From Gemmatimonadota bacterium (GTDB lineage: Bacteria; Gemmatimonadota; Gemmatimonadetes; Gemmatimonadales; GWC2-71-9), in the NCBI GenBank assembly GCA_036679605.1, contig JAZDCZ010000289.1, positions 76,153 to 140,152 of the forward strand: a stretch of DNA of 64,000 nucleotides, written 5' to 3'. The translations under genes were made by a program, and so were the position numbers. Below, in pieces: positions 47,398 through 64,000 of the stretch; the first letter of the stretch is position 1; every line of letters starts with the position of its first letter. The notes below the pieces were generated by a model. That model was given only the letters and a program-made list of their open reading frames with translations. It made no database searches and was not told the origin of the DNA.

Positions 47398-47423
47398 AAA
47401 AAAGCCCCGGCAGTGCCGGGGCT
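47398..47423 (-). terminator. intrinsic terminator (possibly bidirectional)
   Basis: AAAAA-AGCCCCGGC-agt-GCCGGGGCT: perfect hairpin with a U-tract on the minus strand. Confidence 0.85.
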
Positions 47424-47459
47424 ATCTATCTGAAAACAGGAGTACTCCGAAGCGGTTTA

Positions 47460-47636: not shown

Positions 47637-47763
47637 TATCAACCTCTTCTCGACTAGTTCATCTCGCGTCAACATCATGATCTACACCCCTCGCATCTTC
47701 GATTCTACACTTGCTCTTCTCTATGTTATTAGATGCGTGGAGTACGAGAATGGTTGCAGCAAC

Positions 47764-48216
47764 TCAACGGCGGTAGCGCTCCAGCCATTGGAGGTCGTCG
47801 GAATCCACATTGACGGCATAGAGCACTCCGTCGCCGAAACCCACCAATCTCCGGTCGAGAACGCCGTCGGGGCCGAGGACGGTCATCCGCATGTTGCCGA
47901 AGTCCACTAGTAGAGTAGAGTCGTCGGGAAGCGGAAGCAGCGCTCCGGGAGTCCTGTATTCGCCGGGTCCCTGACCCACGTGGCCAATCTGCTCGACGAT
48001 GTCGGCTGCAAAATCGACGAACCGGACGGCCTGTTCAAGCCGGTCCGAAACGATGAGTCGTCCGTCCGAGAGTTCTCGGAGGCCGGAGACGGAACTAAAT
48101 GATTCGGAGAGTGAAGCGTCTGGCCTGTCGAGTACGACGCGCTCCACCTTCTGTGCTGACAGCGGACTGGATGCCAGTGATGCTGCAGCAAGACCAATCA
48201 TGATAGTGCGCGGCAT
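47764..48216 (-). pseudogene. internally deleted 6-bladed beta-propeller secreted protein
   Basis: Signal peptide and GHVGQGPGEY blade joined directly to the C-terminal signature LYAVNVDSDDLQWLERYRR. Only 150 aa versus 372-396 aa for the related proteins in this window. Confidence 0.6.
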
Positions 48217-48312
48217 GTCCTGCTCCTTTAGATGGTGCTCGTGCCTGCAAGCACACTAGATGTATCAGCGGATGAAACGGTCGCAGGCTGGGCTAGAAGT
48301 GGTGGCGGACGC

Positions 48313-49209
48313 TCAACCGGCTCTCGCGATGACGTTGCGAGCGATGGTCGACGGCACGCGGCAAGCCTCGGCGAAAGCTAGAAACACGAGGTCGAAGCTC
48401 TGGGCCGCGCGAACAGAACGACGGTTGATATGCAGCAGCCGATTGCGCAGTCGGCGAACCTGATAGCCGGCCGCCCCGAAATCGTTGGCGACGCTCGCGA
48501 TGGGCCGGCCGCTGGAGTCGGCCGCCAATGCCAGGAACATCAGGGTGATCCAGTCCATTATCGCCTTAGGTGATGGCAACCCGGCGCTCTCGAAGTCGCG
48601 TTGGATTGTCCGTTTGGGAACACGGAGTTCCGCGGATACCGATCGAACCGAGGATAACCGCCGTTTCTCGAGATCGATTAGGCAAGCCAGTGTTTCGCGA
48701 ATGTAATCCCTCGGGCGGCTCGGCAGATCGGTAATCAGCAGTTCGACGAGATAACACACCAACTCAGCGTGTCTCGCGGCCAGGAGCCAAGCAATGTTTT
48801 CCCGCACCCCGCGAATCTCGTCGCGACGAGTCGACTGGAGCATGACTTTTAGGCCGTCTCTGTCGCCACAGTGCTCCAGCAGAGTCGAGATGGTTGGGGT
48901 AGGCGGCGCATACAACAGTAGTGGCACGGTCCGATAGGCATGTCTCAGCGCCCGTACCAGCGGTACGACATCGTCGGTCCACGGGGCGAGATCGTAAATG
49001 ATAGTCGTGAAGTCACTACCGGTCAGCGGAACCTTCGCAAGCCGGATGGGTGAGATATGCACGGGATTAGCTCCCATATCCACGGCCGCGTCATGCACGA
49101 TGGCGGCGGCACTCGGATCGCTCACACATACGGCAGTCTGGGGTTCAGTCGATCGTGGTATCACCCGTGTCACTATCCCTTCTCGATCGGTCGGAGAACC
49201 GTCGTTCAA
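48313..49209 (-). CDS. pseudo-receiver plus HTH (AraC-like) transcriptional regulator
   Basis: IIYDLAPW...VPLLLYAP N-domain; SVRSVSAELRVPKRTIQRDF..AGLPSPKAIMDW helix-turn-helix. Confidence 0.7.
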   Translation of the reverse strand: MNDGSPTDREGIVTRVIPRSTEPQTAVCVSDPSAAAIVHDAAVDMGANPVHISPIRLAKVPLTGSDFTTIIYDLAPWTDDVVPLVRALRHAYRTVPLLLYAPPTPTISTLLEHCGDRDGLKVMLQSTRRDEIRGVRENIAWLLAARHAELVCYLVELLITDLPSRPRDYIRETLACLIDLEKRRLSSVRSVSAELRVPKRTIQRDFESAGLPSPKAIMDWITLMFLALAADSSGRPIASVANDFGAAGYQVRRLRNRLLHINRRSVRAAQSFDLVFLAFAEACRVPSTIARNVIARAG

Positions 49210-49404
49210 ACGGTCTGCTAGTGGATGATAACCCTGACATCAAGCAGCGGTTCCAGCAAGTCAACTGCAGTGGGGCAAATAGCCGACGAGATCCGGCAAA
49301 GCTTCGGCACCACTAATCGATGAACTCAAACCGACCCTCGCATCCCAAAGTCTACGGGTGGGATATCGCCTCACCGTCCATGTATGGGATTATGCCTGCA
49401 CCGG

Positions 49405-49764
49405 TTAATCCGTCGACCGCTCCACGAGCCAGACCATCTCCTGTGTTAGCCGTGCCCCACGCGTGCACAAGCGGGTCCACTCGGCCTCGGTATAGATCAG
49501 GATATCTGCCGGCACGGGTAGTTCGGCCAGATCCCACTCGACCGCCCGCCGGATGAACGGCGTCACCGATTCCCGGACGACCGCCACGAAATCGAGATCG
49601 CTCCCGACCCCGGCGTCGCCGCGGGCATAGGAACCAAACAAACCGAGCCGCAGCAGCTCAGGGCGCTCGCGCATCTGACGCCGTGCCCAGCGCCGCGCCG
49701 CTGTCCCTACTGCCGACGCGTCAGGCCATCTGAGTATGAACGAACTCGATGATTTCACTGGCAT
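49405..49764 (-). CDS. minimal nucleotidyltransferase (MNT, antitoxin-type)
   Basis: FGSYARGDAGVGSDLD (GSx10DxD); overlaps the HEPN gene. Confidence 0.9.
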   Translation of the reverse strand: MPVKSSSSFILRWPDASAVGTAARRWARRQMRERPELLRLGLFGSYARGDAGVGSDLDFVAVVRESVTPFIRRAVEWDLAELPVPADILIYTEAEWTRLCTRGARLTQEMVWLVERSTD

Positions 49765-50104
49765 ATGCGATCGCTTCTCGGCTCTGCAGCTCTCCGTAGT
49801 GCTCGAACGGCGCACCCTCTGGATGCCCATTGGGATACCGGGTGGGCACATACCCGGCGTCTAGCACGCGCGCCTTGTCCACGAGGGCGCCGTCCACCTC
49901 GAGCGGCAGCTCTGTAAGTAGCCGGGCCACGACATGTCCCCAGGCCTCTTGTCCGCGCGCGAGATGCAGCGCCTTCACGGCCTTCTCGGCTGCTTGGTGC
50001 GCCGCAAAGCACGCCCACTCGTGCCGACCGTCTCGCTGTGACGCCTGCGCCTGTTCGAGATCGCGCTTCGCTTGCGCGAACCAGTCCTGTGATCGGTTCG
50101 GCAC
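49721..50104 (-). CDS. HEPN domain protein
   Basis: DWFAQAKRDL, WACFAAHQAAEKAVKA, YVPTRYP; AGGAGG SD before GTG 50104. Confidence 0.92.
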   Translation of the reverse strand: MPNRSQDWFAQAKRDLEQAQASQRDGRHEWACFAAHQAAEKAVKALHLARGQEAWGHVVARLLTELPLEVDGALVDKARVLDAGYVPTRYPNGHPEGAPFEHYGELQSREAIAYASEIIEFVHTQMA

Positions 50105-50164
50105 GAGTCCTCCTGGTCCCCTCGCAGCCATAAAGTCGACATTCAAGTTACGACCAAGGCGGTG

Positions 50165-50265
50165 CCGGTGTCCACGACGAACACCATTAAGACTCTTCCA
50201 TCATCCTATAGAGCGCGTCCCGGTCAGCCAGATCCACCCTGGGTTTGCCCATGGAATGCACGGGT
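50165..50265 (-). pseudogene. vapBC-type toxin-antitoxin scar
   Basis: The ATPase tail HSMGKPRVDLADRDALYRMMEE resembles an antitoxin C-terminus; a TAATG overlap then starts MVFVVDT, like a PIN toxin N-terminus, which stops after 14 codons. Confidence 0.55.
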
Positions 50266-51398
50266 GACGAGTGCAGCCGCTTCAAGAATTCCTCTGCGGG
50301 TATGCACCAGATGCCATCGATCCGGAGCCTGTCCTTGCCGCGGTAGAGTAGGACCGGCTCGCATTCAGGGTACTCGTTTGCGAGACTGCGCAGCCCGCGC
50401 AGGTCTCTGTTCCGGACCACGGCAGTGTTCTTGACTTCGACGGCCCAGAAACCGCTGTCCCCGTAGATCACGAAGTCTACCTCCGTGCCGGCGCGGGTTC
50501 GCCAGAAGTACAGCTCGCTGCGGGTGCCGGAGTAGGCGATCCATGCTCTCAGATGTTGCGCTACCAACCCCTCCAATGCGCTGCCGGCGATCTCTTCCGG
50601 ATTGTCCAGCGGACCGCTGGGCCGGAGCGAACGATACACTCCGGCATCGAAGTAATAGAACTTGGGATGGACCGTGGTTTTGCGCGCCGCGCGCTTTGTG
50701 AACACCGGTACTCTGAAGCCCAGCAGCAGGTCCTCCAGGACTTCCAAGTATCCCTGTACGGTGCGGCGCCCAACCTGACACTCACGTGCCACGTTGCTCA
50801 AGTTCAAGACGGCGCCGTGTGAGAAGCTCAAAGCTTCGAGAAACCGTGCGAACGCGCCGAGGCTTCGCGCCAAGCCTTCCCGTTGGACCTCTTCCTCGAG
50901 ATAGAGGGATACATATGCGCTCAGCACATCGGCCGGGTCCTTTGCATCGACCACGAGCGGTAGCAATCCCGTTTCGAGTGCGTTCTCCAGATTGAACCCG
51001 GGTAACTCGGCCGCCATGAACGGATGTAGGGTACGCATGACAGCTCTTCCCGCGAGCAGATCCACTCCTCCGCGACGGAGTTTGCGGGCGCTCGACCCGG
51101 TCAACACGAACCGCCTGCCGCTCTGTTGCTCGATCAGGTCGTGGACGACGTTCAGAAGTTCCGGTATTCGCTGCACCTCATCTATCACCACGGTGTGACT
51201 TCCAGGGGATCCGGCAACCAGCTCCGACAGCCGCTCCGGTCGCGCGCTTAGCCGCCGGAACACGTCGGGTTTGAGTAGATCGACAAACAACGCGCCGGGG
51301 CACTGCGACCTGAGCCAGGTTGACTTCCCGGTGCCGCGCGGGCCGAACAGAAAGAAGCTCTGCTGGGGAAGGACGAAAAATCGAGGCACTAATGCCAT
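50187..51398 (-). CDS. AAA_14 ATPase with DUF4143 (PD-(D/E)XK-like) C-terminus
   Basis: GPRGTGKS, IDEVQ, LTGSSARKL, KFYYFDAG, FWRT...EVDFV...VEVK. Confidence 0.92.
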   Translation of the reverse strand: MALVPRFFVLPQQSFFLFGPRGTGKSTWLRSQCPGALFVDLLKPDVFRRLSARPERLSELVAGSPGSHTVVIDEVQRIPELLNVVHDLIEQQSGRRFVLTGSSARKLRRGGVDLLAGRAVMRTLHPFMAAELPGFNLENALETGLLPLVVDAKDPADVLSAYVSLYLEEEVQREGLARSLGAFARFLEALSFSHGAVLNLSNVARECQVGRRTVQGYLEVLEDLLLGFRVPVFTKRAARKTTVHPKFYYFDAGVYRSLRPSGPLDNPEEIAGSALEGLVAQHLRAWIAYSGTRSELYFWRTRAGTEVDFVIYGDSGFWAVEVKNTAVVRNRDLRGLRSLANEYPECEPVLLYRGKDRLRIDGIWCIPAEEFLKRLHSSPVHSMGKPRVDLADRDALYRMMEES

Positions 51399-51525
51399 AA
51401 TTAGACTCAAAATGGCGTATGCGATGCTGAAAATCAAGTTATCTGTGGTAGGTCCCGGCCGAGTTCGCCATTCGCGGGCGACAGCGAGTTCAAGGTGCTG
51501 TGGCATAACGTCAAACTATGGAAGC

Positions 51526-51559
51526 ATTATACTATAGTATACTACTACTATAGTATAAT
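51526..51559. promoter_or_regulatory. perfect 14-bp inverted repeat, probable operator
   Basis: ATTATACTATAGTA-tactac-TACTATAGTATAAT between two divergent ATPase genes. Confidence 0.7.
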
Positions 51560-51594
51560 ATCTCCATAAATGTGGCAGGCATCGCGCGGAGAAC

Positions 51595-53061
51595 ATGAGA
51601 GAGATCGTCGATCGTGAACAGGAGATCCGAGAACTCAAGGGGCTCGCTGACGCCGGGGCACCCAAGCTCGCTCTCCTGTATGGCCGACGGCGTGTCGGCA
51701 AGACGTTCCTGTTGACCAGGATCTGGTCGCCGGAGCGGGTGTTCTACTTCACCGCTTCTGCGACCACGCCGGAACAGAATCGCCGACATCTCGTCGGGGA
51801 GGCCGCTCGGTGGGCCGGCGTCGAACTGGAACCGCATGACTATCCCACGTGGCGCACCGTCTTCCGGATGCTCGTATCCCTCAAGCCCGACAATCCGATT
51901 GTGGTCGTGCTCGACGAGGTCCAGTACCTGGCTAACGATGAAGTCGGGCTCCGTGAGGTGGCTTCTGAGTTCAACGCGGTTTGGGAACGAATCGACGCCC
52001 GCCGGCAAGTACTCGTCGTGCTATCGGGGTCTGCGGTTAGCACGCTCGGCGCGCTGGCTCACGGCGGGTCACCACTCTACGGACGGTTCGACTGGCAAGC
52101 CAAACTCACACCGTTTGACTACTGGAATGCCGCCCGCATGGTGCCGACCTACGATCACCAGGACCAGTTGCGCGTCTACGGTGCGTTTGGCGGTATGCCA
52201 CGCTACCTGGCGTCGGTAAAGGCTGGATGCTTGGTCGGCAAGAATGTGCAGGACCTGTTGCTTTCACCCAGGGGTGAGATCCGGCTCCAGATCGAGACGG
52301 CGCTCCACCAAGAAGAGGGGCTCATCGATGTCGCCAAGTACCGGGCGATCCTGATAGCAATTGGAAGCGGGCGCACGCGACTGAGCGAGATCGGTCAGAG
52401 AACGGGGTTACAAGTCGACAAGGGATTCAGGCACCGCATCGAGCAGTTGATCGAACTGGGATACGTCCGCAAGGGGCGGAACATCGGGGCCGGCCGGACG
52501 ACACCGTTCTTCTATCGGATCGCCGATCCAGCCGTGGCGTTCTTTTACTCGCTGGTAGCACCTTACGAGACCGCACTCGAGGTGACGGAGCCCGCGGAAC
52601 TCTGGAGGACACCGCTAGAGTCCATGTTTCAGACGCACATGGGGTTCGTATTCGAGCGGGTTGTTGCACAGGCCTCTTACCGGCATCAGACGGAGCTGGG
52701 ACTTCCGATCGTGCGTCAGTGGGGACGATGGGAGGGACAAGACCGAAACAGGAAAGCGCTCGAGATCGACGTCGCCTGCGAACTCACGGATGGACGGATC
52801 CTTTCCGGCGCTATCAAGCACCGGCGGCGACCGATGGGATCACGCGCCTTCATCAAGCACTTGAGGGATCTGGAGCGTGTCGCGGCGAGCGGCAAGCATG
52901 GTGCCTGGGCTCGCCGGGCCCTCGAACCGGAGGCGCCACTGCTGTTCGTGTCGGTGAGCGGGTTTAGCGACAAGTTCCTCCAAATGGCGGAGGCGAGCGA
53001 GCGGGTCGTCATAGCGTGGACAGTCGACGATCTGTTTCGGGGGTTCGGGAATGTAGAATGA
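51595..53061 (+). CDS. archaeal-type ATPase (ATPase_2) with wHTH and DUF234-like nuclease-fold C-terminus
   Basis: VDREQE, YGRRRVGKT, LDEVQYL, LSGS, SPLYGR, GGMPRYL, EIDV. Confidence 0.92.
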   Translation: MREIVDREQEIRELKGLADAGAPKLALLYGRRRVGKTFLLTRIWSPERVFYFTASATTPEQNRRHLVGEAARWAGVELEPHDYPTWRTVFRMLVSLKPDNPIVVVLDEVQYLANDEVGLREVASEFNAVWERIDARRQVLVVLSGSAVSTLGALAHGGSPLYGRFDWQAKLTPFDYWNAARMVPTYDHQDQLRVYGAFGGMPRYLASVKAGCLVGKNVQDLLLSPRGEIRLQIETALHQEEGLIDVAKYRAILIAIGSGRTRLSEIGQRTGLQVDKGFRHRIEQLIELGYVRKGRNIGAGRTTPFFYRIADPAVAFFYSLVAPYETALEVTEPAELWRTPLESMFQTHMGFVFERVVAQASYRHQTELGLPIVRQWGRWEGQDRNRKALEIDVACELTDGRILSGAIKHRRRPMGSRAFIKHLRDLERVAASGKHGAWARRALEPEAPLLFVSVSGFSDKFLQMAEASERVVIAWTVDDLFRGFGNVE

Positions 53062-53080
53062 CGACCGGGTGACCGGATGG

Positions 53081-53149
53081 AGGGGATCTATGATCCGGGT
53101 AACCCACCGATGTGACCTTTTGCTCCTTCGTGGCCACTGTAGTATAGAG
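53081..53149 (+). repeat. 69-bp exact direct repeat, copy 1
   Basis: AGGGGATCTATGATCC...CACTGTAGTATAGAG, identical to 57128-57196. Confidence 0.95.
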
Positions 53150-53296
53150 CCTGTGGTGCCTCCGTGGAGGCGTGGCCGCCGTTGATGGACTGGGAACGCG
53201 GCGCGTTGCCAGAGCAGCCATCCGCCATGTAAGACTGCCGTCACAACTTGTCGAGATGTATGATGGGCCCTTGCTCTAGGGTCAGCGGATGCGCGC

Positions 53297-54154
53297 GTGG
53301 CAGGCAGCATGTCCCAACAGAGTGACCGAGACGTCCAGCGCATGTTGGCGGACTTGTATCTGCTGGTGCCGCCTTATCAAGACGTAAAATCTGTTCGGGC
53401 TGTAGTTGGCACGAATAAGTATAGGCCAGAACTGGGCTCAATCCTGTATGCAAATGGCGACAATGTCCTTCGCTCGCTGGCATCACTTGGATTGGCAAAC
53501 ACATGGTGGCCGTGGGCCGTGCCGTGTGTGGTTGTGCAAAGAAGTGACGGAGAGACAGAATCATTGATTCGTCTCGTGGCTCCAGAACCGACGCGACTAG
53601 CAATCGATCGCGTAGATAAGCCGACCGCAAGAGCTACGCCGAGTGCGATTCTCCGATCAGTAAAGGGCCGACGCAACCCAACGTCCGACGTTGTGACCGC
53701 TTTCTTGAAGCGACGTCTTGGAGTCAATCGATTGCAGGCGTTCGCGAGCGAGCAGTGTCATCTTGCATTAGCTGAGCCTCCCAGTCCGAGCCCGCGAAGC
53801 ATCGCCAGCTATAGTCGGACATTCGCCGACCATGGTCCCTTTACTGCATGTGGATGGCGGGCAGTCGCCAGACTCGCCGTTCACCTTGCGGCGAAGACTC
53901 CGCAAACATGGATGTCAATGCAAACTCTGCAGCGCCACTCGCGGAAATATCTTGCCATGTCCGTGGTCGAAGCACGTCGACTGTTTGCGTGGGAGTGGGT
54001 GCTCGAGCAGGCCCTTCGTGTCGGAGGGTATGTAACAAAAGAGGAACAGCAGCGAGCGGTACGACTATGGAAGTGCCGGCGAAGGGACTGTGCCTGCGTT
54101 TGCCACACGGAAAGCTCTTCTGAGAACCGCTGTCAAAACCTTGCAGAATCGTAA
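53297..54154 (+). CDS. hypothetical protein, probable divergent HTH regulator
   Basis: LVPPY, PWAVPCVVV, C-terminal MQTLQRHSRKYL...WEWVLEQALR. The regulator call is an inference. Confidence 0.55.
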   Translation: MAGSMSQQSDRDVQRMLADLYLLVPPYQDVKSVRAVVGTNKYRPELGSILYANGDNVLRSLASLGLANTWWPWAVPCVVVQRSDGETESLIRLVAPEPTRLAIDRVDKPTARATPSAILRSVKGRRNPTSDVVTAFLKRRLGVNRLQAFASEQCHLALAEPPSPSPRSIASYSRTFADHGPFTACGWRAVARLAVHLAAKTPQTWMSMQTLQRHSRKYLAMSVVEARRLFAWEWVLEQALRVGGYVTKEEQQRAVRLWKCRRRDCACVCHTESSSENRCQNLAES

Positions 54155-54264
54155 CTATCAGAAACTTGCAGATATGCAACGTTCTTGGCTTGTCAAGAAA
54201 AACCCGCGCTCTAAGATTATGTTGAGCACGATCCACGCCAATGCAGGCCAGGAGGGTGGAAATA

Positions 54265-54843
54265 ATGAGGAACAAACTGAGAGTATTCGGTGCCATCTTC
54301 GCAACCACCGTCATGGTGATTTCGGCACTGCAAGCTCGTAGGGTGTGGTTACCGCATGGCTTGCAATTTACGCAATCAGACGAAGTGTCTCGACTGCTAG
54401 GCACAACGCTTCCGCCAGTAACCGTCAATGCTTTGGATGGAACTGAGTTGAACATTCGAAAACACATAGAGGGTCGCAACACACTGATAATCCTTGCTGG
54501 CATGGCCGATTGTTTACCGTGCGCTAGTTTCTCTCTAGAGTTGTCGGTTATCCGAAATCGATTCCCTACTCTACTCAGCGTGATAATAGGCAGCGGTCGT
54601 GAAGAGGAGGTTTTTCTCGAGTATTTCAATCGCACGAGGATACAACGCTATGCATTACTCGATCCAGACCGGGAGTTGCTAAGAGCGCTCGGAGTTCGCC
54701 GTGAGCCGTTGATTCTCCTCGTTGATGATTCCAGCCGCATTCTATTCGTTGATGACAGAACGAGTTCGACGTCTTCCGTCTTTCGCATCTCGCAACTACT
54801 CGCTGCGCTAGCGCATTCCTTGGAATCGTCAGAGGCGTTGTGA
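54265..54843 (+). CDS. membrane-anchored redoxin/TlpA-like thioredoxin-fold protein
   Basis: N-terminal TM, LP...V.ALDG, CLPC, cis-Pro loop REPLILLVD. Confidence 0.8.
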   Translation: MRNKLRVFGAIFATTVMVISALQARRVWLPHGLQFTQSDEVSRLLGTTLPPVTVNALDGTELNIRKHIEGRNTLIILAGMADCLPCASFSLELSVIRNRFPTLLSVIIGSGREEEVFLEYFNRTRIQRYALLDPDRELLRALGVRREPLILLVDDSSRILFVDDRTSSTSSVFRISQLLAALAHSLESSEAL

Positions 54844-54911
54844 ACAAGACATGCTGCCCCTCCCTCGTAGTTCAGTCTCCCTCAACAATTCTCAGTCAAC
54901 AGGAGGACAAG

Positions 54912-55082
54912 ATGAAGACATCAACGAAGAAATCACGGCTAAGTACTGCCATTATGAGTGTCGGTTTCATCCTAGCGGCTCTCTTGCTGTTTACTCCGCA
55001 GACAGCGCACGCTAGCAACTACGCCATCTCCTGGATGCCGGATGGGCCGCCCTGTTCGCAAGATCCAGGGAATGATTGCTGA
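54912..55082 (+). CDS. small Sec-secreted peptide precursor (56 aa, 2 Cys)
   Basis: AGGAGG SD; MKTSTKKSRLSTAIMSVGFILAALLLFTPQTAHA|SNYAISWMPDGPPCSQDPGNDC. Confidence 0.8.
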   Translation: MKTSTKKSRLSTAIMSVGFILAALLLFTPQTAHASNYAISWMPDGPPCSQDPGNDC

Positions 55083-55342
55083 TTGTCGACCTAACATTGA
55101 GTAGGGGCTGGGTCCTGGGAGGGGCATACCCGTTCTGGCCGTCCGCTCCGGTGGATGTGTGACATGCAGGTGGTCGCTTTTCAATATGACCAGAGTGAAG
55201 TACAGTCGCCGTCATGTTGAATGCGAAATCTAAGCTTCAGTAGCTGTCTGTCCCAATTGGGGCTGGATTAGGCAGGCCAGAGAAATAAGTTTTACAGAAA
55301 TTGGATTCGGTGCACAATTCATTCTACGGCATATGGACATAA

Positions 55343-56461
55343 GTGGAGGTTATGAAGATGCTATCACGCTCCTGTCGTAGGCTTCTCTTTTTATGTACGG
55401 TTCAGTACCTGTCTGCGTGCGGTTCGGAGAACTCACCGCAGGGTACGTGGCGAGAGTCTTCGGATTTGTTGCCCCTTGCAAGTCTACTGCGGGCTGAAAG
55501 CCACATACGGCTATACCCCAGCTACGACGACCCAATTGGCACCGCCGGTGATTTGCTTGTCGTCGACTCGCAATTCATAGTGTTCGACGTCATGCAGGCG
55601 AACCTCAAGGTATTCGACTACGCCGGCAAACTGATCCGAACCATTGGTCGCAGTGGTGATGGACCTGGTGAATTTCGTAGACCCATGAGCGGCACTGTTC
55701 TCGCCAACGAGCGGTTCGCGGTGCTGGATGAAACGCGGCGTGTGGTGTCGATTCGCGATTCCACGGGGCGCACGATATCGGAGTGGTATGTAGGAGGTAG
55801 CAAGCTGTACAGTGTAGGCTCGATCGAGGGAAACCAGGGGATTGTGCTGACGGGTCGACTTAATACCGTAGCTTCGTCTCCAGATCTGCTAACAAAAGAT
55901 CGTGGGGTGCACGAGTATGATTTCGCCGGCAGCCTCGTGGCGTCATATCGACCAGTACCCAAACCGAAGCACCACTGGGAGGAAATGTTTAGCGGCACTG
56001 TACTCGCATCTCTTGGAGACATAGTGGTGTCCGGTTCATACAGTTCCAATCGCATTCACCATTATGAGCGGAGCAGCGGGAAAGAGTGGTGGACAGACAT
56101 CGGGGGTTTGTGGTACAAACCCCTGGAGTGGCCGGATGACGACGAATCGTCGAACGTGTCAAAGGCAGTTCAGGTCACCAGTTGGGCAAAACAACAAATC
56201 TTGCTAACGAGGTTGTACTCGATCGACGAGACACATTACCTGGCTCAATTCCAAGCCTACGATTCTGATGACAATCGGGTCTTCCACTATCTGTTGGCGG
56301 ATGTCTCAGGCAAGACGCTAGCGATCACCAAAGCAACCTCTTTGAAGATTTTACATGTAATCGCCGGGGTTCCTTACGGTATAGAACTTGGTGAGGATGG
56401 GGCAGTCACGATCGTAGTGTTGGCACTTAATCGCACCTTTCTCGAAGATATGGGCCCGTAG
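55343..56461 (+). CDS. 6-bladed beta-propeller (NHL-like) lipoprotein
   Basis: Lipobox LSAC; VFDYAGKLIRTIGRSGDGPGEF. Confidence 0.85.
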   Translation: MEVMKMLSRSCRRLLFLCTVQYLSACGSENSPQGTWRESSDLLPLASLLRAESHIRLYPSYDDPIGTAGDLLVVDSQFIVFDVMQANLKVFDYAGKLIRTIGRSGDGPGEFRRPMSGTVLANERFAVLDETRRVVSIRDSTGRTISEWYVGGSKLYSVGSIEGNQGIVLTGRLNTVASSPDLLTKDRGVHEYDFAGSLVASYRPVPKPKHHWEEMFSGTVLASLGDIVVSGSYSSNRIHHYERSSGKEWWTDIGGLWYKPLEWPDDDESSNVSKAVQVTSWAKQQILLTRLYSIDETHYLAQFQAYDSDDNRVFHYLLADVSGKTLAITKATSLKILHVIAGVPYGIELGEDGAVTIVVLALNRTFLEDMGP

Positions 56462-57031
56462 GCCGTTGGACGTACCGCGTAGTGGGTTGTTCCGTCTCTC
56501 ACATCTGAAGAGATAGTGACCCGATCTTTACTGACCGTCCCAATCTGTCAGTTCTCACAAGGATGACCCACCTATTCTCACGGCCTTTACCCACCTATCG
56601 CGAGGCCGTGATGAATGCATACGATACTGTGTGTACGTTATCTTCGCGGTCGTGCCGGATGCGAGGTTTCGCACAGTTTCGTACGCTGGCTTGAAGTTTC
56701 TTACCCAGGACCTCCTTCGGTTAGGGCCTTCAGCCGACGTGGGGTTGCGTTGGCCGGAGCGTTCCCGACTGCGATAGTTCTCCCCCTCGATCACAATCTG
56801 ATAGGCGTTGTGGGTCAGTAGATCCAGTGTGAGATAGCGCTTTCTTCCCAGAGAGGGCCGGAAATTTCAACTTGTCCCAATCTGAGTGGTCCTGAAAACA
56901 GGGGGCAGTCCAGAAAACCCGGCCAAATGTCCCAAAAACTACGTACGATGTCCCAATAAAGCACTAACGGAGCCGGTACGAACCCCCCAAATTACACCTA
57001 CCCGAAGCTGGAAGCACAATTGCCGTCCTCC

Positions 57032-57077
57032 AGTCGGATACGAATTGGCATTGGAGTCGGATACGAATTGGCATTGG
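57032..57077 (+). repeat. 2 x 23-bp perfect tandem repeat
   Basis: AGTCGGATACGAATTGGCATTGG occurs twice in tandem. Confidence 0.9.
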
Positions 57078-57127
57078 TTCCGTCGATTCGCCGGTCGCCG
57101 GTACAGTGCAGCTAAAGGTTTGAAGAC

Positions 57128-57196
57128 AGGGGATCTATGATCCGGGTAACCCACCGATGTGACCTTTTGCTCCTTCGTGGCCACTGTAGTATAGAG
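57128..57196 (+). repeat. 69-bp exact direct repeat, copy 2
   Basis: Identical to 53081-53149. Confidence 0.95.
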
Positions 57197-57231
57197 GCTC
57201 GAGAGGTGCCATAGCGACGTCGCTGGCCGTG

Positions 57232-57502
57232 ATGGGCAGAATTGACCGGTTCGAATCGCCGACTTTCCTGCCCCGTGCGCGGTTGGGCGAGCTGGAGGCG
57301 ATCACGGAATTCTTCGAGCGCTTCGGCGACGTGGTTTTCGGCCTAGCACAGACTGACCAAGTCACGTGAGGAGGCAAAGGATGTCGTTCAAGATGTGTTT
57401 ATGGAATTGGCGGAGGCTTTGCGGGGCTACGAAGGGCGGGGCAGTATCGAGGGGCGGATCAAGACGAGAATCCGAAGATCCTTTAGAAAGAGAGCCTTTT
57501 GA
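57232..57502 (+). pseudogene. frameshifted, truncated ECF sigma factor
   Basis: Manual translation: ARLGELEAITEFFERFGDVVFGLA, frameshift near 57348, then RLTKSREEAKDVVQDVFMELAEALRGYEGRGSIEG. This matches sigma70 region 2; region 4 is absent. Confidence 0.8.
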
Positions 57503-57504
57503 AA

Positions 57505-58380
57505 ATGCAGACGCTAGTGAGCCCCGATAGCCCATTACAGTTCGGATGCTGCATCAGCGAAGGAAATCCACGGGAGCTTGTCACGCGCGCGGTCGGGGAC
57601 ATAGGCGGTGAGGCCGTAAACATCGGCTGGGAGTCTATGCACCACCGGAAGGCCTGCGGTTGGGATGCAGTGGTGTACGATCTTGCTCCTTGGGACAAGC
57701 GTTCGCAGTCAACCATTCGCACGATTATCGAAGCTTGTCCGACGGCACCGATTCTTCTATATGCTCCTGTTCGACCGGGTATCGGGTCGCTACTTTGCGA
57801 CCGCTGGCCCGACAGAGTTGGGATCAAATTGCAGTTTGAGGATCCGGAGGAAGCAACACGACTTTATGACCAGATGCGGGTCTTGCTAGGAAGGATTCCG
57901 CTACAGCACATTGGGAGCATCTTTGGAGCACTATTTCCCGAATTGCCCAATAGGGTATCTACCTATATCCGGCTGGCAATCCGCGAGCTTGGTGATGCAG
58001 GACAAGTGTCTCCAAACGTGAGTTCTTTAGCCTATTCAATGGAGGTGAGCCTCCGCACGCTGGAGCGTTCGTGGGCCGGCCTACGCATTCCAAGCCCAAA
58101 GGAATTACTCGATTGGATAATGTTACTCTACATCACACTGGCTGGAGAATCCACATGTATACCTGTCGGTGCTGCGGGCCGCGTGATAGGTCTTGATGCC
58201 GCTGCCATTTGTCGGTTGCGCAAGAGGCTCGTTTCACCAATGATCGCGAACGCGCTACAGAATGGGATTGAATCGACAAGTGACTTCGACGTTACACTGT
58301 TATCGTTCGCCCGGAGATATGGTATTTCGGCTGATCACGTTCTAGAAGTTTCGGAGCATGCTGTTCTCAAATGCCGGTGA
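57505..58380 (+). CDS. pseudo-receiver plus HTH (AraC-like) regulator, paralogue of 48313-49209
   Basis: VVYDLAPW, APILLYAP, NVSSLAYSMEVSLRTLERSW..IPSPKELLDW, FDV. Confidence 0.75.
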   Translation: MQTLVSPDSPLQFGCCISEGNPRELVTRAVGDIGGEAVNIGWESMHHRKACGWDAVVYDLAPWDKRSQSTIRTIIEACPTAPILLYAPVRPGIGSLLCDRWPDRVGIKLQFEDPEEATRLYDQMRVLLGRIPLQHIGSIFGALFPELPNRVSTYIRLAIRELGDAGQVSPNVSSLAYSMEVSLRTLERSWAGLRIPSPKELLDWIMLLYITLAGESTCIPVGAAGRVIGLDAAAICRLRKRLVSPMIANALQNGIESTSDFDVTLLSFARRYGISADHVLEVSEHAVLKCR

Positions 58381-58528
58381 TTGGTCTAACCGCGTAAATT
58401 GTACGGGCCAAGACCTGATTTGACAGATTCTCCCTGCGAAACGGTTGTGCTACCCCGACCTTCCTTTCCCACCCGGCGGTCAACTGTCCGCAAATGTCCA
58501 CATCGTGTGACCGCGCTCTGACACTGCT

Positions 58529-58588
58529 TCCCTGATGGGTCCGTTTGATGTCGTACCGCACGAAGTACGCGTAGAGGTCGGACTGTAA
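58529..58588 (-). mobile_element. possible IS481-like integrase-core remnant
   Basis: LQSDLYAYFVRYDIKRTHQG resembles the LQ.DL..Y...YN..R.HQG end of integrase-core transposases. Very short. Confidence 0.35.
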
Positions 58589-58931
58589 CACTTGAGCGTC
58601 GCTCAAATCTCTGCGGAAACATCACGTTGCAAAGACTCAGTCTCGGTTCGTTTGCCATACCTGCCTCCTCTGTTCAAATACAGAATATGAATCGCAAACA
58701 CAAAATCTCTGACACCCCCTCGCACAGGAACGCTGACGCAGTCTCAGGTGACCACATCTTGTTTCCCTCGTCCGAGCTGGCGTGACTTTCAGAAAAGGAA
58801 TTGAGGTAGGACAGAGTCAAACTACGGATTGAAAGGTCGTCGTTTGATCATCCCTCGATCTGCAACGTTTGATAATGCCTCTGATTTCGAACCCAACCAC
58901 ACGATGCGGGATGGCACCGTCAGTTAGCAAG

Positions 58932-59642
58932 CTACTTGTTCCCAACTGTAGTGCTCCACAGCAGCACGGCTCCACAGGGGCGACGTCTTCTGGCTATGTC
59001 ACGATACTTGATAGGTATGTCGATGTAGCTCTTATACACCTCAATCCCGTAGGCCCAGTCGAGCGGAAACTCACCCAAGTCTATTCTCAATGGCCTTCCG
59101 TCGAGATAGATGAGGGAACACCGCAGTCTCGCCCTCATTAATGGTACTTGCATAACTACGACATCCCTGGCGGTTCCCTGGTGCAGCTGCTCTATCTCCT
59201 TCTTGTTGAACGAGTAACCCCACTTGAGGTTTCTACGTGAAAGAAATTCCCGTTGCTCCGGGGTTTCCGCTGTTTCACCGAAGATCGTAACTCCCTCGAG
59301 CAATGTAACCTGACGGGCCAGGTTGACACGTAGCTCGATGGCCTGCTGCCCGCCTAATGTGAACGCAACGTACTGCGGACTATATCCGATGCGACGTACG
59401 CGGAGAGTGTATCTGCCAACCCCGAGTGCCTGTATTCTAAACGCTCCGTCCCGGCCGGTTACAACTAGCCGCTGTGCTATGCCGTCTGGTCCGATCAATT
59501 GGGCGGTGGCACCTTCTATCAAGGTGTCGGATTCGGCAAGATAAACCACGCCATGGATCGTCTGGGCAGTGGCGGTACTAGGTAGCAGAAGGCATGTAAG
59601 CACGGCGGCAGCCACGGGTATTCGCTCAGGCAAGTGGATCAT
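58932..59642 (-). CDS. secreted carboxypeptidase-regulatory-like domain plus TonB-plug-like domain protein (no barrel)
   Basis: Signal peptide, TGRDGAF, G.YTLRVRRIGY, IYLDG, GIEVY, CGAVLLW. ATGA overlap with the DsbA gene. Confidence 0.8.
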   Translation of the reverse strand: MIHLPERIPVAAAVLTCLLLPSTATAQTIHGVVYLAESDTLIEGATAQLIGPDGIAQRLVVTGRDGAFRIQALGVGRYTLRVRRIGYSPQYVAFTLGGQQAIELRVNLARQVTLLEGVTIFGETAETPEQREFLSRRNLKWGYSFNKKEIEQLHQGTARDVVVMQVPLMRARLRCSLIYLDGRPLRIDLGEFPLDWAYGIEVYKSYIDIPIKYRDIARRRRPCGAVLLWSTTVGNK

Positions 59643-60469
59643 GCAACAACACTTCCGGCCCTCAAGTGGACGGCCCAACGTTGTTCGCTAGCTTGACCCT
59701 TCTCAGAATAGCTCTCCACAACAAGGTTCCGTGCATCCCGTAGCTGGTCTTGTTGATTCAGCAAGAGGATCGTCGGGCGCCATCGTTTGGACGGGTAAGA
59801 ACCGACAAGACCCTCCAGGTCTTCGCCTGAAAGCATCCCCGCATGAATCCCCTCAAGAGAGACGAAAGTCGGAGTTGCGCTGACTCCAAGATGTCTTCCT
59901 AGACGAACTTCTGCTTCTAGTTGTGCGCGGGTCTCTGGGTTTATCAGACATTGGGTAAATCGATCGAGATCACGAATTGCGATCTCGCGAGCGTCTCTGA
60001 CCCAATTGCCGTCGTCTACCCATTTGTCCGACTCCATCAGATGATCATGCATTGCAAGGAACCGTCCCTGCTGCTCAGCGCACAGCGCTGCAAGAGCTGC
60101 TCCTTCGGCGCGGGGGTGGAGAGAACGTAGGGGAAAATGGATGAATATTACGCTGGGGTTATCGCTTTCAGTTTTCCATTGCTCCATGCGCTCATGCTGT
60201 TCCTGGCAAAAGCGGCACTCATAGTCCGCAAACTCTACAAGCAACACAGAACTTGTGCCCGACAGCACAGGACGTCCCATCTCAAGCAGGCGTGGCCAGC
60301 TTTCTCTGACGATCAACCTTGCTTCCCTTTCTCGATGCCATTGTGCAATTGACCTGCCGAGCAAGCCATTGGGGTGAAATAGCAGGACGGCCCCAACGCA
60401 CACAAGTATCACGTTCAAGGCTGTATCAACGAATCGCCGCGGTCTCGTGCCAGCCCTTCCGCTTGTCAT
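59639..60469 (-). CDS. membrane-anchored DsbA-family oxidoreductase
   Basis: EFADYECRFC, HFPL..LHP.A..AA, EQQGRF, GVSATPTF. Confidence 0.9.
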   Translation of the reverse strand: MTSGRAGTRPRRFVDTALNVILVCVGAVLLFHPNGLLGRSIAQWHREREARLIVRESWPRLLEMGRPVLSGTSSVLLVEFADYECRFCQEQHERMEQWKTESDNPSVIFIHFPLRSLHPRAEGAALAALCAEQQGRFLAMHDHLMESDKWVDDGNWVRDAREIAIRDLDRFTQCLINPETRAQLEAEVRLGRHLGVSATPTFVSLEGIHAGMLSGEDLEGLVGSYPSKRWRPTILLLNQQDQLRDARNLVVESYSEKGQASEQRWAVHLRAGSVVA

Positions 60470-60766
60470 ATCGGTACATCCGCAAGTTCGTACGAGAGAA
60501 ACTGCACCACCGGCTCCCTTTGAATATCCCCTATGTGACCCGCATCGCTCCAAGGAGTTCCACTACAGTACTGTTCGTCCGAGGTACCAGGATGCCTCCT
60601 CGCGAAGCTAGTGAATACGCACATACACCAAACGCTACCTCCACCTCAAAGAAGATGCATTCCCAAAGTCGGAAACCGAGGCATTGAGTCACCCTCATAA
60701 CGTTGTAGTCGCTTAGCTGAGATAATGTACGTGACTACGTTAGCTCTCCACTAAACCATCCACACT

Positions 60767-60795
60767 ACGGAACCGTCTTCGGGCCCGGCTCCGTA
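60767..60795 (-). terminator. hairpin downstream of the peptide gene
   Basis: ACGGAGCCG...CGGTTCCGT on the minus strand, just after the stop at 60819. Confidence 0.45.
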
Positions 60796-60818
60796 AATGT
60801 GGATAGCTCGGTTAACAA

Positions 60819-61028
60819 CTAGTCAACGTCGCATCTCCGTACCTCTGTGCACCCGGCCCCGGCCGACTCGCAAAAATTAAATCCGCTGACGCACGAACCG
60901 AAATCACACCGCAACAAATTACAGTCCACCGCCTCCGCCTTAGGAACCTTGGTGAGGCCAGTTATTGAGCCTAAGGCAGCGAACCCCACAACCAACGCGA
61001 GCCGTTTGAAGTTTCTACGCAAATCCAT
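60819..61028 (-). CDS. small Sec-secreted Cys-rich peptide precursor (69 aa, 6 Cys)
   Basis: GGAGG SD; MDLRRNFKRLALVVGFAALGSITGLTKVPKAEA|VDCNLLRCDFGSCVSGFNFCESAGAGCTEVRRCDVD. Confidence 0.88.
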   Translation of the reverse strand: MDLRRNFKRLALVVGFAALGSITGLTKVPKAEAVDCNLLRCDFGSCVSGFNFCESAGAGCTEVRRCDVD

Positions 61029-61190
61029 TTGTACCTCCGTGAAGTGGATGTTCGGACAAACCGCAACAGTGCGGCACTAGACGACGATGATAGTATGTAC
61101 TGGCAACGAGGTGTGTCAATGCAAATTTTACGTCACTCACACCCCGAATGCGACGCTATGGTCACTTGCATAGTGGTGGGACGAGACGAG

Positions 61191-61220
61191 TATGCGACAA
61201 CTCCTGTTGATATGCGACAA
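61191..61220. promoter_or_regulatory. 10-bp direct repeat with 20-bp period in a divergent promoter
   Basis: TATGCGACAA at 61191 and 61211; partial ATGCGAC at 61148. Confidence 0.5.
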
Positions 61221-61320
61221 TATGGTAGAATATGTGAAACGAAGTCTTTCCACGCGCATATGGGTCCGCTATTATGACTTGCGCAAAGAGTAGTTCCCCA
61301 CACCTTCACTGAGCGAGTGA

Positions 61321-62511
61321 ATGATGAGCGCGAAAGTAGGAGCGTCGGCGCATTCGCAGCAAGCGCATGTTGCGCGCCCGGGAGTAATAGGATGCGCAGC
61401 GGTTGTAGCAATCTACCTGTTAGGCTGCGCGCCGGATGCTACAATTGAGAAGATAATCCACCACCCAAACGACGAATCGATAGTGAGGGAGGTTGATCGC
61501 GGCTTCATTATATCGAAGAGCCTCGAGAAGCCACCAATCGGCGCAATCCGATTTGCCAGCAAGGAGTTGTCTCGGGGCACAACGATTAGTGTAGGAGTAT
61601 TGGAAGGGGCGGACACAGCCATGTTCGGACGGATTGAGGACGCTGCCATCATGCGGACCGGTGAAATCGTAATATTGGATTCTAGAATGACCCAGTTGCG
61701 GGTCTATGGCACGGATGGTGAGCTCCTGGCCACGGGGGGACAGTATGGCCTGGGTCCCGGTGAGTTCAGGGCGCCGAGCGCCCTGGACGTGGATGACGAC
61801 AACCATATATACGTCGCGGATCGGAATGCCATTCACATTTTCGATTGGTTGGGCGATTCGTTGGTGTACCGGCAGACCCTACATCTACAGTTTGGCGTCA
61901 TTGATCTCTGTACACTTGGGAACATCGTGTTTGTCCATGGGCTGGACCTGGGCTCCGGAGGTAAAGTTATCCACCGGCTCGGCTCCGGCGGTGAGTTCAC
62001 GCTCTCATTTGGCGACATTTACAGGATGGACGGCGCCGAATTCGAATTCACAACAATGCGCCGGGGCCGCATCGCATGCGCAACGGACGCTCAAGTGGTT
62101 GCGTTCGCGGCCAGCTACTTCCCAGAAATCCACGCGTGGACGCCTGAAGGCAAACCGTTATGGGTTACGAGCATAGAAGATTGGTTGCTATTTGACATTG
62201 AAGAACGCCCCACTGAAAAGTCCATGGCCATCACCGTGTCGGATGAAGGTTCCCATTTCCCTCGGAATTTTGTCGCAGCTGGAAAGTTCATCGTCTTGGA
62301 CCTTGCGCTTCGGACAAAGGAAGGGGTTCTAGGAAAAGTCGAATTTGTGAACTTGGACCGATACGTGATAGATGCATCCAATGGAAAGGGGGCCTACATG
62401 CGCGCTACGCAAGCCCTTTTCCTTGCAGCAAGAGGAGAGACCCTCATAACCACGGAGCATGACCCGTTTCCGCGCATGCTGATCCATCGCAGTGCTGGAG
62501 GTAGAAGATGA
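61321..62511 (+). CDS. 6-bladed beta-propeller (NHL-like) lipoprotein
   Basis: Lipobox LLGC, MFGRIED, GGQYGLGPGEFRAP, IYVAD, C-terminal DPFPR. Confidence 0.87.
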   Translation: MMSAKVGASAHSQQAHVARPGVIGCAAVVAIYLLGCAPDATIEKIIHHPNDESIVREVDRGFIISKSLEKPPIGAIRFASKELSRGTTISVGVLEGADTAMFGRIEDAAIMRTGEIVILDSRMTQLRVYGTDGELLATGGQYGLGPGEFRAPSALDVDDDNHIYVADRNAIHIFDWLGDSLVYRQTLHLQFGVIDLCTLGNIVFVHGLDLGSGGKVIHRLGSGGEFTLSFGDIYRMDGAEFEFTTMRRGRIACATDAQVVAFAASYFPEIHAWTPEGKPLWVTSIEDWLLFDIEERPTEKSMAITVSDEGSHFPRNFVAAGKFIVLDLALRTKEGVLGKVEFVNLDRYVIDASNGKGAYMRATQALFLAARGETLITTEHDPFPRMLIHRSAGGRR

Positions 62512-63137
62512 CGACGAAGCGATTGATTAACATCGGTGGCGCTGTGATAGCGTTTGGTTTGGCCTACGGCATTAGCAGTGGGCAGGCTGATCGTTCACGC
62601 GGAACTGCCCTTGGTGCAAATGGGGGAGTAACCATACCCAGGCCTGAAGTGGCAAGAATTGTGAGCGGGACGGAAATCGCTATGGTTTACATCGGGAGAA
62701 AGAGTTGCGGTTGGTCTAATCTGCCGTGGATGCCGGATGCCGTCCGCGACATTCGACGTCTGATCGCCGCGACAGCAGACTCGCTGGGAATGTCTTTCGT
62801 GACCATCGGAGTCGGACTTGACAGATCGTCTACTGTCGCTCTCGAGCATCTACGAAAGATGGGCCCCTTCGACGAGATCTCGGCCGGCCACTCCTGGTTC
62901 AATCTTGCCTCCCAGAGATTCATCTGGAATGCGATTCCTGGACCTGAGGGAACTCCACAGATCCTTGTGCTGTTGCGAGAGATCCGGCTTCCCTCATTAA
63001 GCGGTGCGGGAGGGTTTGAGATCGCGCATGAGCGGCTGCTGACGCGCAAGGTTGGTACGTTCGAAATCGCACGCTGGTTAGCTGCGGGTGCGCCAATTCC
63101 CACGAACTTGTTTCGCCAGAAGAAAGAAATAGATTGA
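62508..63137 (+). CDS. membrane-anchored thioredoxin-fold protein (CxxS)
   Basis: TM anchor, VYIGRKSCGWS, GTPQILVL; ATGA overlap with the propeller gene. Confidence 0.72.
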   Translation: MTTKRLINIGGAVIAFGLAYGISSGQADRSRGTALGANGGVTIPRPEVARIVSGTEIAMVYIGRKSCGWSNLPWMPDAVRDIRRLIAATADSLGMSFVTIGVGLDRSSTVALEHLRKMGPFDEISAGHSWFNLASQRFIWNAIPGPEGTPQILVLLREIRLPSLSGAGGFEIAHERLLTRKVGTFEIARWLAAGAPIPTNLFRQKKEID

Positions 63138-63349
63138 CCTTGGGAGGGTGACCCGTCACTCTTGGTTCGTGAGCGAGACCGTAGCGGTGGGTGCAAGGAT
63201 CTGCGCCCTCTGCGGCACGTGCCTTCCCCAGCTTGCGCGTGCCCAGAGCGAGTTGCGAAAGTGCTAGACTGATCATCGATCGGGTTGGATCTCTGTTCTC
63301 TGCCAAATTGGGACATGTCCGTTACATCGTGGCGCTAGTGGCGGCATTA

Positions 63350-63730
63350 CTAATCAGGCCGTAGTCGCTCTACAACGGCGCCCTGCTTGACGACCTCTCT
63401 CGGGTTGCCGCGCGTATCATCACCGCGTTCATCCGGACGAGCGTGGGTGAGCGGAGCCTATGGCCGGCATTGTCGCATCGATCCAGACCCACGGCTCCCT
63501 GGCAAACTGGCACCCGCAACTCCATCTGCTGGTGACCGATGACTGGTTAGGGCATGCTCGCCTGGCCGCATTTGGGGTTTCACATGCATGACGGGGTGTG
63601 GGTCACGGCTGACGATCGCGAGTTCGCCGCCCGGCTGGCCCGTTACAGCACCCAAAACCCCTGGCGCTGAGCCGCATGGAGCATCAGTCAGACAACGCCA
63701 CTGTCAGCTGCCACTTTGACACGCCGACGG
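63350..63730 (+). mobile_element. decayed IS91-family (HUH/Y2) transposase
   Basis: Manual translation across frameshifts: LLDDLSRVAARIITAFIR / GIVASIQTHGSLANWHPQLHLLVTD (damaged HUH) / WPHLGFHMHDGVWVTADDREFAARLARY / ALSRMEHQSDNATV. Confidence 0.8.
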
Positions 63731-63755
63731 ATTCCTCCGCGGGCAGCGAGATACT

Positions 63756-63890
63756 CCCTGCGAATTCCGGGCTCAGGCTGCGCTTCATCACGATGGTGTG
63801 CCTGGCGCTGTCGACTTCGATGATCGGCATGCCGCAGATGGGGCTGCCCTGCGCCACCGCCCGCCCGTAGGCCGGCACAATCACCACCGA
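63756..63890 (-). pseudogene. pntB: NAD(P) transhydrogenase beta-subunit remnant with internal deletion
   Basis: VVIVPAYGRAVAQ is joined directly to GSPICGMPIIEVDSARHTIVMKRSLSPEFAG; these are two non-adjacent motifs of PntB domain III. Confidence 0.75.
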
Positions 63891-64000
63891 GATTGAGATG
63901 AGAAGGCCAACCTCCCGATGGCGGGATACCTTGTAGAGGTTCCCAATATCAAAGGACGGGCTCTTGAGGCCCAAGAACCAGGAGGCTGGCCCATGAAACA

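Follow-up and report, generated by a model that had tools for sequence, protein, structure and literature searches.

Secreted miniproteins that contain several disulfides and have folding catalysts of their own have been studied mostly in plants and animals; the bacterial cases studied are a few bacteriocins. Class II bacteriocin clusters usually, but not universally, encode a double-glycine leader and a C39 ABC exporter. In Bacteroidota, NVEALA (PF14055) peptides adjoin DUF5128 propellers, an arrangement for which we found no paper in the literature searched. According to one report, in the pediocin PA-1/PedC, sublancin 168, and thermophilin clusters the gene for a small exported disulfide peptide adjoins one for a dedicated thioredoxin-fold protein, and further modifying enzymes are absent (PMC4919988). 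NHLRC2 (PMC6107167) and SOQ1 (bioRxiv 10.1101/2024.11.01.621559) join a TlpA-like domain with an active-site proline to a six-bladed NHL propeller, and in seven bacterial genomes the NHLRC2 authors found no conserved neighbors (PMC6107167). Yeast Eug1p and CGHS mutants of protein disulfide isomerase (PDI) have a thioredoxin fold with a single active-site Cys and belong to an oxidizing compartment (PMC2132551). Here we analyze a 64,000-nucleotide stretch of a Gemmatimonadota genome (the window, G000:C212:76153-140152; genome G000 comprises 6.72 Mb in 434 contigs) that carries a cassette, module B, in which genes for a six-Cys peptide with a predicted export signal (pepB), a CxxS thioredoxin-fold protein (trxB), and a DUF5128 propeller lipoprotein (propB) lie together.

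The cassette is real and conserved, and as a unit it matches no curated family. It was not described in the literature searched for family names and combinations, a search with limited coverage of subscription papers and supplements. In contrast to the bacteriocin clusters, the peptide has an acidic six-Cys core and a predicted Sec signal but no ABC exporter of its own, the thioredoxin-fold protein carries CxxS instead of CxxC, and a propeller lipoprotein is the additional partner. Of the features of a class II bacteriocin with an oxidoreductase, a thioredoxin-fold gene beside the peptide gene is present, whereas a cationic mature peptide and a double-glycine leader with a C39 ABC exporter are absent. 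Because charge and export route fail, we do not assign the cassette to that class; its parts would work together as pediocin and PedC do. Relative to NHLRC2 and SOQ1, thioredoxin and propeller are encoded by separate genes (with fused frames at three loci only), the active site is CGWS and not CC(I/V)NC, the propeller is a lipoprotein, and a dedicated peptide gene is added. Unlike the CxxS PDIs, trxB consists of one bacterial domain of the TlpA-like kind, predicted to be anchored at its N terminus, and its activity is putative. It shares the predicted fold and active-site proline of TlpA/ResA/CcmG thioredoxins but lacks their dithiol CxxC. As at NVEALA loci, a small secreted peptide adjoins a DUF5128 propeller, but here the CxxS thioredoxin is diagnostic, and PF14055 had no match to pepB, to 49 members of its family, or to pepA, the peptide of the neighboring module A (E values up to 0.05 to 0.1).

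An earlier reading made from the DNA letters (the sequence-only reading) had seen no class-defining enzyme of the RiPPs (ribosomally made peptides with post-translational modifications), and our searches bore this out. Radical SAM, YcaO, lanthipeptide, and C39 proteins had no matches among the 18 window proteins scanned and none in the scanned representatives of recurrent neighbors from 60 loci, a set that did not cover every one-off neighbor.

The linkage of the three core genes extends across lineages. The trxB profile was searched in 301 genomes of the phylum and neighborhoods were fetched for most matches; 51 genomes matched, G000 included. Around 74 trxB genes in other genomes, a Cys peptide lay within 5 kb in 62, a propeller within 3 kb in 61 (within 500 nt in 58), and all three parts were present in 58, with peptides called by profile or by a signal plus at least five Cys. 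Strict triples numbered 47 and took in 32 other genomes, with 18 genera and 6 families represented; in 46 triples all genes share the same strand, and the window is the sole exception. In the reciprocal direction, the peptide profile gave 89 matches in 44 of the 301 genomes, and 74 of these fell within 6 kb of trxB. Peptide matches outside the training set were also found near trxB (26 of 41 overall and 22 of 30 at E<1e-4). In all of these counts kin are not independent, and some nontraining peptides are close to training ones.

The genome of the window tells the same story. Besides trxB, it has two paralogues, on contigs C422 and C170, and all three have a DsbA, a two-Cys propeller, and a six-Cys peptide as neighbors. 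A strict six-Cys detector called only four open reading frames (ORFs) in the 6.72 Mb, three of them beside the three trxB genes. Since the genome has 44 PF17170 (DUF5128) matches and more than 50 propellers by a local profile, adjacency of propellers to peptides needed a control. With our own heuristic for small ORFs and signal peptides, a few calls of which are doubtful, the DNA up to 3 kb from propellers, 4.7% of the genome, contained 11 of the 30 small ORFs that bear a signal and at least two Cys, so that clustering near propellers exceeds chance. A secreted Cys ORF stood within 1 kb of 13 of 54 propellers.

Upstream of the pepB start, GGAGG precedes the ATG by 5 nt, and the predicted mature core is 36 aa long with six Cys, acidic, and of net charge -3. 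pepB itself had one Pfam match, below the cutoff, and members of its family had none above the cutoff in Pfam or NCBIfam. In an alignment of 49 precursors, whose leaders are hydrophobic and of the signal type, the first of the six Cys reaches at least 90% conservation, and the other five never vary. Most members follow the spacing C-x4-C-x(3-15)-C-x(6-12)-C-x(4-10)-C-x4-C, with the four-residue gap kept between C1 and C2 in 48 of 50 peptides and between C5 and C6 in 45 of 50. C termini show no conservation in the alignment, and His is absent from the first Cys onward in 20 of 54 peptides. Against 1.84 billion proteins, the peptide profile retrieved 668 clusters at 50% identity, with the Cys pattern present in all 150 of the library matches listed. 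Of 54 locus peptides, 42 had acidic cores, as did 142 of the 150 listed matches, only one of which had a charge of +3 or more. Peptide genes form tandem arrays in places, such as four in L075.

An AlphaFold2 model of pepB (mean predicted local distance difference test score [pLDDT] of 76, predicted template modeling score of 0.36) has a helix at its N terminus and four short strands, which predicts a four-strand core. Fold searches with this model were dominated by the signal helix and gave nothing clear versus known disulfide-peptide folds (knottin, granulin, and defensin); Atlas matches scored 0.80 or less, and against solved structures the sequence matched only a transmembrane segment (E of 0.83). 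As a separate observation, five trxB-cassette loci encode a six-Cys domain and a C-terminal domain of about 150 residues in one ORF (Table 1), and this unannotated domain may hint at the role of the peptide.

The trxB model (pLDDT of 78) matches folds of the TlpA/CcmG/DsbE type (for TlpA/CcmG-like folds, Foldseek E of 2.4e-4 and VIA Z of 8.5, root mean square deviation [rmsd] of 4.0, 127 aligned residues). The SOQ1 thioredoxin domain scored similarly (Z of 8.3, rmsd of 3.5, 127 aligned) and NHLRC2 gave a Z of 7.2, values tied with many generic TlpA proteins; Sco proteins were also among the Foldseek matches. Across 63 family sequences, the active site is CxxS in 40 and CxxC in 10, and the active-site proline is present in all 63. 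Of 30 members compared with Pfam, one had a weak thioredoxin match, and a trxB pattern scan of sequence collections returned one short match. A PDI of the CGHS type reportedly oxidizes poorly but is still expected to isomerize (yeast Eug1p and PDI mutants; PMC2132551), and for this reason we read trxB as a putative isomerase or holdase. Two side observations concern this family: at L081, L085, and L090, a trxB subfamily with an ASDCGWS motif stands beside a variant six-Cys pattern starting with CxC, and the Atlas holds similar unnamed trxB-like clusters, one of them commonest in Balneolota, which we note as a lead only.

The propB stop codon and trxB start codon overlap at ATGA, and at L051, L065, and L123 the two domains share a single open frame, which hints at joint action. 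propB and the module A propeller propA both pass the PF17170 cutoff. The propB alignment has invariant G143, C197, and C253, with no His reaching 90% conservation, and the solved relatives of the propeller profile are NHL propellers, with a weak match to SOQ1. In a midpoint-rooted propeller tree with several weak nodes, the two Cys were found, among the 13 propellers of this genome that were placed, only in the three beside trxB.

On balance, we think it somewhat probable that the six-Cys peptide of module B is exported, oxidized, rearranged by trxB, and bound by propB as an envelope ligand. pepB would leave the cell through Sec and lose its signal by cleavage, and a DsbA would oxidize it; where no local DsbA is encoded, the housekeeping DsbA-VKOR pair, which this genome has, could serve. 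The trxB monothiol would then rearrange pepB into a native form with three disulfides, and the propB lipoprotein would bind it, making it an envelope ligand and not a membrane-killing peptide. The DsbA, the CarboxypepD protein, and the regulator would be optional additions to this core. With VKOR beside a DsbA and DsbD-type genes also present, oxidizing and reducing partners are supplied by the genome, in which PF02600 found no DsbB.

Several findings weigh against this ligand model. trxB and a peptide occur without a detected propeller at four loci and trxB and a propeller without a detected peptide at three, and neither partner is found at nine trxB genes, three of which are near contig ends. 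Among strong propB-like matches, 51 of 77 are near trxB and 26 are not. These orphans keep both Cys and are scattered across the tree, and of 40 propB-like propellers picked away from trxB, none had a six-Cys family peptide and two had another secreted Cys ORF. The propeller alone therefore predicts nothing, and the incomplete loci together with the orphan propellers indicate that the peptide is linked to trxB no less tightly than to the propeller. With only 13 of 54 propellers of this genome near a secreted Cys ORF, the peptide is marked best by the CxxS thioredoxin and not by the propeller. The expected enrichment of Cys peptides at homologous loci thus holds around trxB and not around trxB-free propellers. 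In the 47 triples, peptide-core distance correlates with that of trxB (r of 0.49) and of the propeller (r of 0.45), compared with 0.07 for signal regions, which align poorly; partial correlations are 0.29 and 0.19, and of 500 shuffles none attained the first value and one the second. Joint inheritance explains much of this, so these correlations show a stable unit and not physical specificity. Close pairs gave no clear signal of core hypervariability (7 versus 4 of 11), the two conserved Cys of the propeller could themselves be the trxB substrate, no signaling output gene is conserved, and signal peptides are heuristic calls. In module A, a contig of sequencing run X2 has a propA that is 93% identical, with 1.19 kb upstream unlike pepA and redoxA.

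The cassette might instead be a split redox machine of the NHLRC2/SOQ1 kind, with trxB and propB acting as one enzyme and the peptide as a redox substrate, an electron shuttle, or a thiol or metal (e.g., Cu) buffer. The alignment of the trxB model with both thioredoxin domains, the weak SOQ1 match of the propeller profile, the fused frames, and the Sco matches all fit this view, as does the CCINC motif held in the two-domain cleft of NHLRC2 (PMC6107167). The structural scores are nonetheless no better than those of generic TlpA proteins, CCINC is absent here, a fixed six-Cys spacing with variable loops over 668 clusters better fits a disulfide scaffold than a redox carrier, and many peptides lack His while DsbA neighbors 10 of 74 loci; we consider this view unlikely. 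Rather unlikely, too, is an antagonistic or antimicrobial miniprotein for which the propeller is the cognate immunity protein and orphan propellers are orphan immunity genes. The layout is that of bacteriocin clusters with a dedicated oxidoreductase (PMC4919988), and the patchy distribution, several copies per genome, tandem arrays, island-like setting, and many orphan propellers would suit such a role, one that the sequence-only reading had entertained. The acidity of the peptides disfavors it, no double-glycine/C39 export was found among the recurrent neighbors scanned, and peptide-trxB loci without a detected propeller exist.

If the true partner were the outer-membrane CarboxypepD/plug protein of the TonB-dependent type, with the propeller as an accessory in an uptake or surface-capture system, then L089, L113, and L117, which have a peptide and a CarboxypepD protein but no detected propeller, would be explained, as would Plug forms directly behind the peptide gene. 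This protein is absent from 50 of 74 loci, however, the window copy has no barrel, and with 42 CarboxypepD profile matches in the genome some adjacency is expected, which leaves this partnership improbable. PAL has a Zn-binding His set, and a propeller acting on the peptide as a PAL-like amidating lyase or similar modifying enzyme would be in keeping with the match of the propeller profile to the PAL domain of peptidylglycine monooxygenase (3fvz, E of 2.5e-7). That match spans one blade region only, and neither conserved His residues nor conserved peptide C termini accompany it, so the conserved residues lend no support to the maturase role that had been proposed for the propeller, and we judge it very improbable. 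Chance clustering of expanded envelope gene families within variable islands could account for the regulators and possibly pepA in a genome so rich in propellers and CarboxypepD genes. For the module B core, the linkage counts contradict it (3 of 3 in this genome and 58 of 74 elsewhere, with same-strand order in 46 of 47), as do overlapping stop and start codons and fused frames, and we give it hardly any credence.

Gemmatimonadota may possibly encode hundreds of three-disulfide miniproteins with their own monothiol isomerase and matched propeller reader, with two-, five-, six-, and eight-Cys scaffolds reusing the same oxidoreductase-plus-partner logic in one genome; we put this forward tentatively. 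If true, it would be a large unrecognized bacterial equivalent of eukaryotic disulfide-rich peptide systems. The analysis adds a peptide family that has no name and comprises at least 668 clusters, together with an unnamed monothiol thioredoxin family that marks these peptides, and the cassette offers a defined context for what DUF5128 propellers bind. Three paralogous cassettes in one genome provide a ready comparison of cognate and noncognate partners, and enzyme-centered RiPP mining is likely to overlook such loci. The window itself contributes an instance of divergent operons, with pepB, DsbA, and CarboxypepD genes on the minus strand and propB and trxB on the plus strand, plus the counts.

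DsbA, the regulators, and the CarboxypepD protein are accessory and not core, being found at 10, 8 (either regulator family), and 24 (within 5 kb) of the 74 loci; regulators and DsbA as core parts were rejected on these counts. Of the Sec-exported, disulfide-matured peptide system that the sequence-only reading had envisaged, the module B part is well supported by conserved linkage in six families, while the place given to DsbA and the regulators did not hold. The window DsbA passes three Pfam thioredoxin/DSBA models, with its ATG at 60469 after start refinement, and shows the family's DSBA/Thioredoxin_4 match, CxxC, and proline loop. About 55 of its residues (59639-59800) extend past the part that aligns with its paralogues, and it ends on the next start codon. 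The adjacent protein, called a CarboxypepD_reg-plug protein before, keeps the first half of that name and not the second: this 236-aa copy has no barrel and leaves the Plug model unmatched, whereas some loci have Plug-bearing forms of 750 to 780 aa immediately behind the peptide gene. The window regulators had no direct match to HTH_18, which matched 6 of 10 members of the regB family and 2 of 16 of the module A regulator family. Further recurrent neighbors, each at a minority of loci, were TonB-plug CarboxypepD proteins, two-component pairs, signal peptidase I, MacB/FtsX permeases, and efflux parts.

Table 1. Features of modules A and B and related elements (window positions unless a locus is named)
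Feature	Position	Strand	Description
pepB	60819..61028	-	69-aa precursor, predicted Sec/signal peptidase I signal, six-Cys core; large unnamed family
trxB	62508..63137	+	Predicted membrane-anchored TlpA/CcmG-like fold, monothiol C67-G-W-S, conserved Pro150; unnamed family
propB	61321..62511	+	DUF5128/NHL six-bladed propeller lipoprotein, two-Cys subfamily, LLGC lipobox
DsbA-like oxidoreductase	59639..60469	-	CRFC, GVSATP loop; downstream of pepB, same strand; accessory
CarboxypepD_reg-domain protein	58932..59642	-	Secreted; ATG 59642 overlaps DsbA stop; accessory
regB	57499..58380	+	Receiver-like plus putative AraC-type helix-turn-helix regulator; accessory
Module A regulator	53297..54154	+	Remote homologue of regB family (hhalign probability 93.5, E 2.4e-7)
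redoxA	54265..54843	+	Predicted membrane-anchored TlpA-like dithiol redoxin, DCLPC; refined ATG 54265
pepA	54912..55082	+	56-aa precursor, predicted signal peptide, two-Cys core, AGGAGG site
propA	55352..56461	+	DUF5128 propeller lipoprotein, LSAC lipobox; other subfamily, without the two Cys
108-nt direct repeat, copy 1	53081..53188		Bounds module A
108-nt direct repeat, copy 2	57128..57235		Within ~500-nt element that also occurs by two other peptide-propeller islands of this genome
Decayed propeller	47764..48216	-	In-frame internal deletion of ~225 codons, first and last parts joined
regC	48313..49209	-	Paralogue of regB, 29% identity
Six-Cys fusion ORFs	L041 6476-7222; L046 6580-7287; L047 7579-8412; L049 3029-3760; L052 6442-7179		Six-Cys domain plus C-terminal domain
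Third-type cassette peptides	L003 2872-3090; L001 7836-8054; L004 (G000:C294:8394-8600)		Secreted peptides of the third cassette type

All ORFs of both modules lie where the sequence-only reading had placed them, but its view of one repeated module with a recurring partner set did not survive. Module A differs from module B and does not repeat it: the peptides belong to separate families, as had been recognized, and the thioredoxins (CLPC versus CGWS) and propeller subfamilies differ. Module A is a mobile-looking, rarer cassette of parallel logic (dithiol redoxin, Cys peptide, and propeller), less well supported than module B. Its regulator family matched in 12 of 151 genomes; in three, all of one genus, it adjoins propellers or Cys peptides, and in the other eight it does not. 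For redoxA, AhpC-TSA/Redoxin matches in Pfam were weak (E of 1e-3, below the cutoff), and two close homologues were found among the 301 genomes, both directly downstream of a propeller, with secreted Cys peptides of other patterns near and an extracytoplasmic function (ECF) sigma factor nearby. Beyond these three seeds, an alignment search gave only weak, generic TlpA-like matches (E of 3.6e-14 or worse), and protein-database searches with pepA and redoxA recovered only themselves. pepA is a singleton with no homologue found in these searches. Selenocysteine read-through of its TGA was considered, as tRNA-Sec calls exist, and was not supported: the folds of the downstream RNA vary with the length taken, and three codons further on there is an in-frame stop. 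propA groups with two propellers of one redoxA-homologue locus (tree support of 0.69); a propA pattern scan of the collections found none, and over all such scans the outcome was weak, with seven loci having one homologue.

Pfam was scanned with the 18 window proteins; the DsbA, the CarboxypepD_reg protein, and both propellers passed cutoffs, trxB, pepA, and the two module regulators had no match of any kind, and NCBIfam gave none above the cutoff for window proteins. Rfam had no matches within 47000-64000, promoter and terminator counts were no different from shuffles, and a plasmid search found no match. The modules have a G+C content of 53 to 54%, versus 58% for the genome, and contigs of sequencing run X1, possibly the source sample, cover both modules in long pieces with no differences. 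One contig of run X2 skips 51438-56900.

The pair of a decayed propeller and a regulator that had been reported upstream of module A was confirmed; at the propeller deletion, run X2 offers a related sequence that is longer by about 676 letters. Between this propeller and module A, positions 49405-53061 hold a HEPN and nucleotidyltransferase pair and two AAA ATPases (DUF4143 and DUF234), a stretch that is rearranged in run X2. The intergenic element at 56940-57466, without an Rfam match, shares 75 to 83% identity with DNA adjoining the peptide-propeller islands of C422 and C357 and contains a 23-nt tandem duplication (57032-57077) missing from run X2. Near the contig end, a short ORF at 63460-63560 carries an HUH-like motif, which we presume to be that of IS91 transposases; this IS91-like remnant had no tblastn match to the three Y2 transposases of this genome.

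Other peptide and propeller loci in the genome differ from these cassettes. L019 (G000:C427:1-20000) is an array of at least seven propellers with CarboxypepD genes, and up to 1 kb away no secreted Cys peptide was called. Without trxB, L005 (G000:C204) combines a regulator with a six-Cys peptide, DsbA, and propeller, and L015 (G000:C170:45727-51662) combines an S41 peptidase, a Cys-rich secreted protein of 140 to 149 aa, and two propellers beside a regB paralogue. A family of eight-Cys secreted peptides with the pattern CxxxC...GxC...CCxC, which we take to be defensin-like, occurs at L008 (G000:C415), L009 (C282), L010 (C270), L011 (C347), and L012 (C18), adjoining DUF4876 lipoproteins and DsbA or AhpC-TSA redoxins. 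In a third type of cassette, secreted peptides with three to five Cys directly precede a propeller, opposite genes for a probable ECF sigma factor and anti-sigma factor (Table 1).

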